A stretch of DNA of 64,000 bases from a virus. Its lineage: Duplodnaviria > Caudoviricetes. The notes beneath the pieces are model-generated. The model searched no databases, was not told the DNA's origin, and was given only the letters and a program-made list of their open reading frames with translations. The translations under genes were made by a program, and so were the position numbers. Position 1 is the stretch's first letter. Each line of letters starts with the position of its first letter. The stretch covers positions 38,353 through 102,352 of IMG/VR virus record IMGVR_UViG_3300020411_000980; one strand, given 5' to 3'. Positions 14,058 through 50,237 of this stretch are shown here, piece by piece.

Positions 14058-14081
14058 AATAGCCTCGTGAAAAAAGAAGGA

Positions 14082-14247
14082 GGGAGGTTGGATTCCTGTA
14101 TACCAACAAGAGATGGGCATTTCTACAGTTTAGAAATCATCTCTGCCTACGACCCGACTGGTAAGTCGATTCTCCTCTCGGAGCAGCACCACCTGTGTCG
14201 TATCACCTTAACCAGCTATATGCCAGTAAGTTTATTCAGTCACTCCC
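14082..14247 (-). ncRNA. manA-like structured RNA
   Basis: Closing helix GGGAG/CUCCC; internal stems UACGAC/GUCGUA, AGAGAUG/CAUCUCU, UUUCUA/UAGAAA, GUUGG/CCAAC; resembles my recollection of the cyanophage manA motif; TATAAT upstream near 14272-14277. Confidence 0.7.
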
Positions 14248-14279
14248 AATGTGCTGATCAGGCACAAATATATTATATA

Positions 14280-42998: not shown

Positions 42999-43071
42999 TA
43001 GGAGTGGTGGGAGTCGAACCCACACTGTGATGATTTTAAGTCATCTGTCTCTGCCTTTGGACTACACTCCC
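42999..43071 (-). tRNA. trnL: tRNA-Leu(UAA), short variable loop
   Basis: GGGAGTG/CACTCCT acceptor; GATGA-CTTAAAA-TCATC anticodon arm; TTCGA T-loop; no encoded CCA. Confidence 0.88.
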
Positions 43072-43148
43072 TGGCGACTCAGGTAGGACTCGAACCTACA
43101 ACCAATTGCTTAGAAGGCAATTGCTCTATTCCATTGAGCTACTGAGTC
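43072..43148 (-). tRNA. trnR: tRNA-Arg(UCU)
   Basis: GACTCAG/CTGAGTC acceptor; CTTCTAA loop; encoded CCA. Confidence 0.92.
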
Positions 43149-43152
43149 AAGG

Positions 43153-43224
43153 TAGGACTACCGAGAATTGAACTCGGTTCACACCGTTATAAGCAGTGGG
43201 CATTAACCAATATGCGATAGTCCC
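43153..43224 (-). tRNA. trnI: tRNA-Ile(UAU)
   Basis: GGGACTA/TAGTCCT acceptor; CACTG-CTTATAA-CGGTG arm; GTTCAA T-loop. Confidence 0.85.
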
Positions 43225-49678: not shown

Positions 49679-49711
49679 AGTTTCTTATATCTTTAGATTA
49701 TATATTACCAC

Positions 49712-49742
49712 AAAAAAAGAGATCCAACAAGGGATCTCTTTA
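49712..49742 (-). terminator. Intrinsic terminator
   Basis: AAGAGATCC/GGATCTCTT stem + T tract. Confidence 0.75.
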
Positions 49743-49779: not shown

Positions 49780-49914
49780 TTAAGCGTATGCTTTTTGAAC
49801 CTTCAGTCCACGATACATAAGATCGTGTCTGTTACGCTTTGCATTCTCATCGAGAACCTTAGCGTTGTACTCTTTAGTGTCGTATTCGACACCACGGTAG
49901 ATGACTTTTGCCAT
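49780..49914 (-). CDS. DUF4278-like YRG-motif peptide (44 aa)
   Basis: MAKVIYRGVEY...LMYRGLK; GGAG SD. Confidence 0.8.
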   Translation of the reverse strand: MAKVIYRGVEYDTKEYNAKVLDENAKRNRHDLMYRGLKVQKAYA

Positions 49915-49947
49915 TGTTTTACTCCAAAGTAGTAGGATTTTTAGCCC

Positions 49948-50157
49948 CGTTCCTTCAGACATTTGCGTCCCAATTACATTCCAATCCTACAGTCTCAACC
50001 AAATGAATCTTATAGATTTCAATGATCTCAGCCTTTTCATCTTCAGACAGTTGTTTATGATTCCTTGTTCGTTGTATCTTTTCAGCTACATCTTCACAAG
50101 AAATTGCTGTTGCCAGCACTGCTAGAAGAGATAGGATGGGTAACATTGGGATGAACG
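49948..50157 (-). promoter_or_regulatory. Glutamine-II (Downstream-peptide) aptamer 2, split by an ORF in its P2 loop
   Basis: CGTTCA-TCCCAAT...~170 nt...ATTGGGA-CGCA-N10-GGAACG. Confidence 0.7.
49955..50146 (-). CDS. 63-aa protein embedded in the riboswitch
   Basis: MLPILSLLAVLATAISCE...ECNWDANV; hydrophobic N-terminus, two Cys. Confidence 0.65.
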   Translation of the reverse strand: MLPILSLLAVLATAISCEDVAEKIQRTRNHKQLSEDEKAEIIEIYKIHLVETVGLECNWDANV

Positions 50158-50160
50158 CTC

Positions 50161-50196
50161 CGTTCCGTGACCTACTTGCACCCCGAAGGGCGAACG
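50161..50196 (-). promoter_or_regulatory. Glutamine-II aptamer 1
   Basis: CGTTCG-CCC-TTCG-GGG-TGCA-AGTAGGTCAC-GGAACG. Confidence 0.75.
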
Positions 50197-50237
50197 TATG
50201 CATATGTTAGCATATGCACAACTATTTAGCAACTTTT

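Follow-up and report, generated by a model that had tools for sequence, protein, structure and literature searches.

Glutamine riboswitches are known as two types, the glnA RNA (type 1; RF01739 of the Rfam database) and the Downstream-peptide motif (type 2; RF01704), whose reported hosts are marine picocyanobacteria (Weinberg 2010). Klahn et al. (2018, PMC6212724) describe glutamine riboswitches as exclusive to cyanobacterial genomes, where those of DUF4278/IF17 genes are ON switches; DUF4278 characterises the glutamine-synthetase inactivating factor IF17 and peptides like it, and in the type 1 leader of Synechocystis gifB the binding of glutamine raises IF17 synthesis in vivo (PMC6212724). 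They are also known in the genomes of T4-like cyanophages. A survey of tandem glutamine riboswitches counted 157 doublets and, under the rule given there, accepted a tandem only without an intervening open reading frame (ORF) (Sherlock et al. 2022, PMC9481103). Since intervening ORFs were disallowed, any class with a gene inside an aptamer was excluded from that survey by design. Riboswitch aptamers are usually treated as compact, contiguous and non-coding, and both the search models and the definition of a tandem assume this. Our search of article full texts, which did not extend to supplementary lists of motif loci, returned no described aptamer that encloses a gene. Here we describe such an arrangement on a 64,000-nucleotide (nt) stretch of DNA (hereafter the window) from a T4-like cyanomyovirus; the window is part of the 102-kilobase (kb) IMG/VR record IMGVR_UViG_3300020411_000980, which is 55% complete. 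At this locus a compact glutamine-type aptamer is followed by a second one whose halves, of 13 nt and 28 nt, are separated by about 170 nt of coding RNA.

Both halves are present and homologous to compact aptamers, and their pairing through helix P2 across the ORF is conserved and covaries among relatives. The architecture is real, conserved and widespread. From their sequence the halves are predicted to rebuild helices P1 and P2 and the junction core of a glutamine aptamer of the glnA/Downstream-peptide type across the ORF, and we put at roughly 60% the probability that aptamer 2 is a genuine glutamine-riboswitch aptamer whose P2 loop houses a translated gene. The features of the locus are as follows.

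50204..50232, minus strand: promoter-like element, TTGCTA-17 nt-TAACAT, read by eye and sub-threshold in a promoter scan
50160..50196, minus strand: aptamer 1, compact, with P1 CGUUC/GGAAC(G) and P2 GCCC-UUCG-GGGU
50158..50161, minus strand: GGAG formed by the aptamer-1 tail and the linker, a putative Shine-Dalgarno sequence
50145..50157, minus strand: 5' half of aptamer 2, CGUUCA-UCCCAAU (whole covariance-model match 49947-50157)
49955..50146, minus strand: inner ORF of 63 amino acids plus stop; phrog_504, and T4-GC 430 in phage annotations
49947..49974, minus strand: 3' half of aptamer 2, with AUUGGGA (49974-49968), CGCA and joining region, and GGAACGG (49953-49947)
49922..49958, minus strand: expression-platform hairpin CUGAAG (49958-49953)...CUUUGG (49929-49924), from RNAalifold on 12 loci
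49780..49914, minus strand: gene for a DUF4278 (IF17-like) peptide of 44 amino acids; Pfam PF14105, phrog_5049 at E 8.6e-20
49706..49741, minus strand: intrinsic-terminator-like hairpin (49741-49716) with T tract, closing a unit of about 490 nt

A first-pass annotation of this DNA had proposed a compact aptamer 1, a 3-nt gap and a split aptamer 2, with a 63-amino-acid ORF between the halves; on the minus strand all of these elements were found in place, including the overlap of the AUG with P2 and of the C-terminal codons with the 3' half. The 5' half consists of the P1 strand CGUUC (50157-50153), an A, and the P2 strand UCCCAAU (50151-50145), and the inner AUG (50146-50144) has its A and U within this P2 strand. 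Translated in the frame of the ORF, the 3' half gives N W D A N V and a stop codon (UGA, 49957-49955), beyond which GGAACGG is positioned. P2 of the window has 7 base pairs (bp), all of them Watson-Crick (U50151-A49968 to U50145-A49974), and this long-range helix is contained in both the minimum-free-energy fold and the centroid fold of the window RNA computed with ViennaRNA. The GGAG is the sole Shine-Dalgarno-like element before the inner AUG, at a spacing of 10 nt, and no separate ribosome-binding site lies inside the loop. A DUF4278 gene had likewise been noted downstream; the gene at 49914-49780 matches this family with 23.0 bits (E 1.1e-4), just under the cut-off of 25.3.

A tblastn search with the inner ORF matched 35 phage records (GenBank/RefSeq duplicates included), and from these matches 16 named cyanomyovirus loci were picked for examination. 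Since they were selected through the inner ORF, these 16 carry it by construction. The split layout was found in 17/17 loci (the window and the 16 named cyanomyoviruses). The order in the named loci is aptamer 1, a linker of 3-4 nt, CGUUCAUCC(C/U)AUG, an ORF of 49-62 codons, and then (C)AUGGGACGCAA...GGAACGG; the linker is GAG in the window and GAG, GAU, GACA or GAAU in relatives. Gene-in-aptamer layouts span at least 14 named genera and also occur on IMG/VR contigs, and the downstream gene is T4-GC 660/542 in phage annotations. ACG-2014b and S-SKS1 have the split second-aptamer layout too; in P-TIM68 both aptamers are compact. In Syn19, Syn2 and P-RSM4 the first aptamer is also split, around another small ORF (T4-GC 936 or 429), with its 5' half just before this ORF, its 3' half just after it, and P2 strands UCUCAC/GUGAGA and UCCAA/UUGGA. 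The modules are stackable, as both aptamers are split in some phages.

We also examined 80 IMG/VR loci chosen solely by the 14-base junction between the aptamers, a choice that is neutral on split versus compact forms. These were searched with R2, a covariance model whose training set consisted of first-position aptamers alone (13 compact, 3 split; ORF columns treated as insertion), whose E-values are rough because its calibration was shortened. R2 gave 121 matches in this sample. The first aptamer scored at least 29.9 bits in 74 loci, among which it was split in 16 (214-254 nt, 33-50 bits), and was matched more weakly in 2 more; as for the second aptamer, 29 loci had a split and 16 a compact one. 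Across the two positions, compact and split forms occur in every one of the four combinations. One locus (L075) is an unsplit twin of the window, with two compact aptamers and a very similar DUF4278 gene.

In the 64-kb window R2 gave two matches only, aptamer 1 and 49947-50157, the latter with the exact coordinates of the split aptamer (14.9 bits, E 0.047). Applied to the 17 loci (82.6 kb) at E up to 1, it gave 32 matches, one for the first aptamer of each locus and one for the split second aptamer in 15 of the 17; these 15 were matched full-length at their predicted coordinates, and there was no other match in the 82.6 kb. As a control we searched 597 kb of unrelated prokaryotic DNA from random taxa with the same 14-base junction pattern, which yielded no split-length match; the 7 matches found there were all of 16-76 nt, the best at 17.6 bits. 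The force of the R2 matches to split second aptamers comes from their position and length, not from their score. R2 had no match in 151 cyanobacterial genomes, an empty result that is uninformative about split aptamers in hosts.

The first-pass annotation had anticipated that standard covariance models would miss the split aptamer, and at this locus Rfam indeed reports only aptamer 1, below threshold. The split aptamer had no Rfam match at E up to 10 in the window or up to 1 in the 16 relatives, as expected because about 170 nt are inserted. Aptamer 1 (50196-50161, CGUUCG-CCC-UUCG-GGG-UGCA-N10-GGAACG on the minus strand) scored 18.2 bits against RF01704 (33 needed) and 15.1 against RF01739 (35 needed). 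Compared with the phage consensus, its CGUUCG..GGGUGCA replaces CGUUCAUC..GGGACGCA, so that the conserved A that follows CGUUC is missing and a U stands where AC would precede GCAA. Aptamer 1 also has the lowest R2 score of the 17 first aptamers, at 38.3 bits (E 4.3e-9) against 45-61. Aptamer 1 of the window may be weakened, leaving the split aptamer as the main sensor in this phage.

The first-pass annotation had labelled the RNA glutamine-II, a label that stands in part. The predicted 3' hairpin that holds GGAACG and abuts the Shine-Dalgarno sequence, as in the type 2 topology, is in keeping with it; the unsplit counterparts, however, reach the threshold of RF01739 and not that of RF01704. 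Compact second aptamers scored 40.3, 38.8, 35.3 and 35.0 bits against RF01739 (threshold 35) and 23.9-27.1 bits against RF01704 (threshold 33). Against RF01704 the compact phage aptamers ranged from 20 to 33.1 bits, and only aptamer 1 of P-RSM6 (33.1) reached 33. Assignment of the split form to the glutamine-riboswitch superfamily is supported by sequence, predicted structure and context, and not by Rfam score.

Pairing across the ORF was assessed in a MAFFT alignment of 63 of 66 split aptamers (45 second-position and 18 first-position), from which both Syn2 aptamers (near-identical to Syn19) and S-E7 (identical to S-P4) were omitted. An alignment fitted to the model was unusable for extending P2 because its long insertions were not left-justified, and at the added pairs only 3-7 of 97 rows held letters. 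P1 formed 5/5 standard pairs in 63/63 split aptamers; as these pairs never vary, they give no covariation for or against. Over 12 pairs, 91.7% of cells pair, compared with 32-57% when the 3' partners are slid by 1-3 columns. The cells changed on both sides numbered 17 against 6.8 +/- 1.9 in shuffles, and the covariation score was 0.110 against 0.073, values that 0 of 500 shuffles equalled in either case. The number of pairs with a change on both sides was 2, which was not above shuffles (457/500 as high).

The covariation of P2 that the first-pass annotation had proposed as a check was present, with C-G, U-A, A-U and U-G alternatives across the ORF. Pair (19,267) is CG in 45 sequences, UG in 10, UA in 5 and other in 2, and pair (20,263) is CG in 35, UA in 9, UG in 7, AU in 3 and other in 7. 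Each of the inner five P2 pairs forms in 56-62 sequences (of 61-62 with letters on both sides), and the pair that includes the A of the AUG forms in 56/61. About 10 of the 63 MAFFT rows, the window included, are out of register at the 5' strand and were therefore tallied as unpaired or gapped; read by eye, such rows do pair (UCCCAAU/AUUGGGA in the window, UCUUAUG/CAUAAGA in L042, and also UCUCAC/GUGAGA). Reading by eye also gave UCCUCA/UGAGGA in L023, with a Glu codon in place of Trp, UCUAUGG/CCAUAGA in L085 (Ile codon) and UCCCU/AGGGA in L059 (Arg codon). P2 is weak in L027, L079 and L047, where 3 bp are combined with an internal loop and another helix. De novo folding of the 63-sequence alignment with RNAalifold recovered only P1 and four P2 pairs, and nothing within the ORF.

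The junction GACGCAA...GGAACGG is invariant or nearly so in the 63 sequences and is the same in compact phage aptamers. The third positions of the Asp and Ala codons in the 3' half are invariant in 63/63. Where the split aptamer is the first of the two, the ORF ends before P2 or within it, leaving the junction non-coding, and unsplit counterparts carry the same 3'-half sequence as non-coding RNA. The constraint acts on the RNA, and the ORF is a real gene.

The inner ORFs constitute one family of small proteins of 50-68 amino acids with two invariant cysteines; they are intact in 17/17 loci translated and in named phages, and identity among the enclosed ORFs falls to 20-40%. Second-position ORFs belong to phrog_504 and first-position ORFs to phrog_6471, and since the two align over their whole length, the module of aptamer plus gene has evidently been duplicated. 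Pfam had no family for the inner ORFs, a homologous-protein search with the inner ORF gave 2 clusters only, and an Atlas search returned only viral hypothetical clusters (scores 0.81-0.86). The AlphaFold2 model of the inner protein has two helices (predicted local distance difference test 76) and a C-terminal tail of low confidence. In every split aptamer that was read, the start codon lies in the 5' strand of P2. An in-frame ATG at 50203 would lengthen the inner ORF of the window to 82 amino acids through aptamer 1 (49955-50203, minus strand), and gene callers use this ATG in an 82-amino-acid database cluster with 92% identity; this form is probably an over-extension, as relatives start at the AUG in P2.

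Downstream of the ORF, a hairpin conserved in 12 loci (CUAAAG/CUUUAG; CUGAAG/CUUUGG in the window) encloses GGAACGG in the RNAalifold prediction. The inner stop codon lies in its 5' strand, and its 3' strand overlaps the Shine-Dalgarno sequence of the DUF4278 gene (GGAG, 49925-49922, in the window). Only 1 pair of this hairpin is changed on both sides in the 12 loci. In Syn19, Syn2, S-BM1 and S-SSM5 (L008/L009 667-740, L010, L014) an extra stretch of about 30-40 nt, apparently a hairpin, lies between GGAACGG and the Shine-Dalgarno sequence and makes the platform longer than that of the window. The downstream proteins of relatives match DUF4278 in 6/6 cases, 2 of them above the Pfam cut-off. 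Several Synechococcus phages (L007 707-874, L012 707-874, L010 732-896) have as their downstream gene a variant of 54-55 amino acids, phrog_545, with an N-terminal extension ahead of the DUF4278 part.

Two metatranscriptome contigs from one sample match the locus with 0 mismatches, X1 over 49810-50176 and X2 over 49854-50176, and both run from aptamer 1 through the inner ORF and the 3' half into the DUF4278 gene. Neither covers the flanking genes, which is no evidence of a discrete transcript. A contig from another study (X3; window 49978-50149) keeps both aptamer flanks and has 137 other letters in place of the 170 nt of the ORF. This suggests that the ORF body turns over between conserved aptamer halves and that cassettes are exchanged.

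Upstream of aptamer 1, alignment of the 17 loci revealed two types of region with an (A/T)ATA core common to all. The first is sigma-70-like, with TTGAC(T)/TTGCT, 17 nt, and then a -10-like hexamer 7 nt before CGUUC; the second has a late-promoter-like motif, TATAAATA, followed by a hairpin. On the basis of these motifs, the timing of expression may differ between phages with different upstream regions. The promoter-like element of the window has its 3' end 7 nt before the CGUUC of aptamer 1 and overlaps a TAAATA motif common to relatives; the promoter scan found no minus-strand promoter directly upstream of aptamer 1. In split first aptamers there is no Shine-Dalgarno sequence between the promoter-like region and the AUG, so nearly the whole leader may consist of the 13-nt 5' half.

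This anatomy suggests a mechanism in which glutamine sensing is probably incompatible with translation of the inner gene. While the RNA is being transcribed, the 5' half would at first lack its partner, which is made about 170 nt later, and the inner AUG would be open for ribosomes to load. Once the 3' half had been made, and with no ribosome on either half, glutamine could stabilise the closed aptamer, so that P2 would bury the inner AUG and P1 the RNA just upstream of it, switching off re-initiation. By analogy with the published cyanobacterial glutamine riboswitches, closure would activate the DUF4278 (IF17-like) gene. Translation of the inner ORF would melt the 3' half and prevent closure, and it is for this reason that the two outputs would be mutually exclusive. 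The two aptamers have identical CGUUC and GGAACG boxes. The 3' box of aptamer 1 can also pair with the 5' box of its neighbour, and such pairing may couple the aptamers. A toggle between two genes is thus a plausible reading of the anatomy. More broadly, cyanomyoviruses would carry gene-in-aptamer modules in which ligand binding and ribosome traffic compete, forming a two-input switch (glutamine and translation) that alternates between a two-cysteine protein at low glutamine and an IF17-like peptide, a candidate glutamine-synthetase inactivator, at high glutamine; we advance this model tentatively, at somewhat short of even odds.

Several observations weigh against a glutamine-responsive split aptamer or against the toggle built on it. 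The R2 scores of the split second aptamers are weak (10-21 bits) and overlap the noise of the control (up to 17.6 bits), and the invariant P1 offers no covariation. The outer two P2 pairs, which involve the U and G of the AUG, form in only 38/62 and 36/60 sequences; P2 has only 5 bp in P-RSM6, P-RSM4 and MbCM1, and 4 bp plus a mismatch in L081. The consensus folding energy is near zero (-1.05 kcal/mol), being low because of the large loop, and the z-score of the window fold is only -1.58. RNA libraries may hold DNA, and a contig is no proof of a single transcript. As to the toggle, a ribosome that terminates within the platform hairpin could expose the Shine-Dalgarno sequence downstream and so couple DUF4278 positively to the inner ORF, and such termination-reinitiation coupling predicts the opposite sign. 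Finally, all the enclosed ORFs are homologous, and the AUG-in-P2 design may have been inherited from one ancestor rather than repeatedly selected.

One alternative is that the ORF is a tolerated passenger, a cassette that landed once in an insertion-accepting P2 loop and spread by duplication and recombination between aptamer repeats. The riboswitch would still sense glutamine for DUF4278, with no designed competition between ligand and ribosome, and inner translation would be incidental or constitutive. The occurrence of compact and split forms at both positions in all four combinations fits such a history, the single architecture of all the ORFs with its two invariant cysteines is consistent with one origin, and the RNA contig with a replaced ORF body and unchanged flanks suggests cassette exchange. 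Against it, the start codon is in the 5' strand of P2 in every split aptamer read, the loop has no ribosome-binding site of its own, and the frame of second-position ORFs always crosses the aptamer core and stops within the platform hairpin; moreover, the layout was kept while protein identity dropped to 20-40% and P2 covaried. We consider this explanation unlikely, if still one to be reckoned with.

More doubtful is the proposal that the split halves bind no ligand. The second CGUUC would then act as an anti-P1 strand for the GGAACG of aptamer 1, that is, as the expression platform of aptamer 1 for the inner ORF, and the long-range helix would be an end-to-end clamp that stabilises or processes the mRNA. 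In the centroid fold GAAC of aptamer 1 does pair with GUUC of aptamer 2, forming a small hairpin that has the GGAG in its loop, and because the P1 boxes are invariant their partners are not assignable by covariation. Against this, first-position split aptamers keep the full 5' half with no upstream aptamer to serve, the junction GACGCAA...GGAACGG is kept even at synonymous sites and is the same in compact aptamers that reach the Rfam threshold, and P2 covaries between the distant halves. We regard as very improbable the notion that the C-terminal W-D-A-N-D is a motif of the protein whose nucleotide match to half an aptamer is coincidental. In its favour, D60 and A61 are invariant in the protein alignment. 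However, the same nucleotides are non-coding in compact aptamers and, in first-position split aptamers, follow the stop codon; third codon positions are frozen, GGAACGG lies past the stop codon, the C-terminal tail is modelled at low confidence, and where the Trp codon gives way to one for E, I or R the 5' strand changes with it. An origin of the 3' half in a protein motif or by chance is contradicted by the non-coding copies and the frozen third positions.

The DNA of this region is similar to 225 cyanophage records, and the genes around the tandem locus encode the transaldolase TalC, a 2OG-Fe(II) oxygenase and NrdB. At gathering score, Rfam found one manA RNA and three transfer RNAs (tRNAs) in the window, and nothing at the tandem locus.

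14077-14267, minus strand: manA RNA, 179.6 bits in Rfam
42999-43224, minus strand: cluster of three tRNA genes, from Rfam

In P-RSM6 and P-TIM40 (L002 902-1087; L003 930-1124) the manA motif sits directly between the DUF4278 gene and talC, whereas the manA RNA of the window is 35 kb from the DUF4278 locus.

A known aptamer class thus appears to be rebuilt across a translated gene, in a form conserved with covariation in cyanophages. If it binds glutamine, it would provide a natural example of a ligand sensor that is gated by ribosomes translating its interior, covariance searches would be shown to miss such forms systematically, and phage control of host nitrogen status through IF17-like peptides would depend on both glutamine and ribosome activity during infection. 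With about 215 nt and two reporters, the gene-in-aptamer RNA would also be a simple, testable system.

With the type 1 riboswitch the split form shares the CGUUC/GGAACG closing helix, an adjacent P2 starting with U-A and C-G, and the ACGCAA junction. It differs in that its P2 is not a hairpin but a long-range helix closing a translated-ORF loop of 150-240 nt, that its P3 hairpin is minimal or absent, and that it has no score against the Rfam model. Like the type 2 riboswitch, it precedes a DUF4278 gene and has its GGAACG in a predicted 3' hairpin abutting the Shine-Dalgarno sequence; in contrast to type 2, its first hairpin is interrupted by a gene, and the compact phage aptamers mostly score below the RF01704 threshold. 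The arrangement resembles tandem (pseudo-cooperative) glutamine riboswitches in having two same-ligand aptamers 3-4 nt apart, whereas the phage loci, unlike the surveyed tandems, have an ORF within one or both members. Leader-peptide attenuators such as that of trp also have a short translated ORF that overlaps alternative pairings, with the position of the ribosome deciding the fold. In the phage RNA, however, the competing structure is a predicted ligand-binding aptamer, and the ORF encodes a conserved protein and is not a sensor of charged tRNA. Coding segments that lie in or share a structured functional RNA are familiar from the loop ORFs of group I and group II introns and from dual-function RNAs such as SgrS/SgrT and RNAIII. 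Those RNAs are ribozymes or base-pairing small RNAs, whereas in the phage case the structure that encloses the gene is, by prediction, a riboswitch aptamer.

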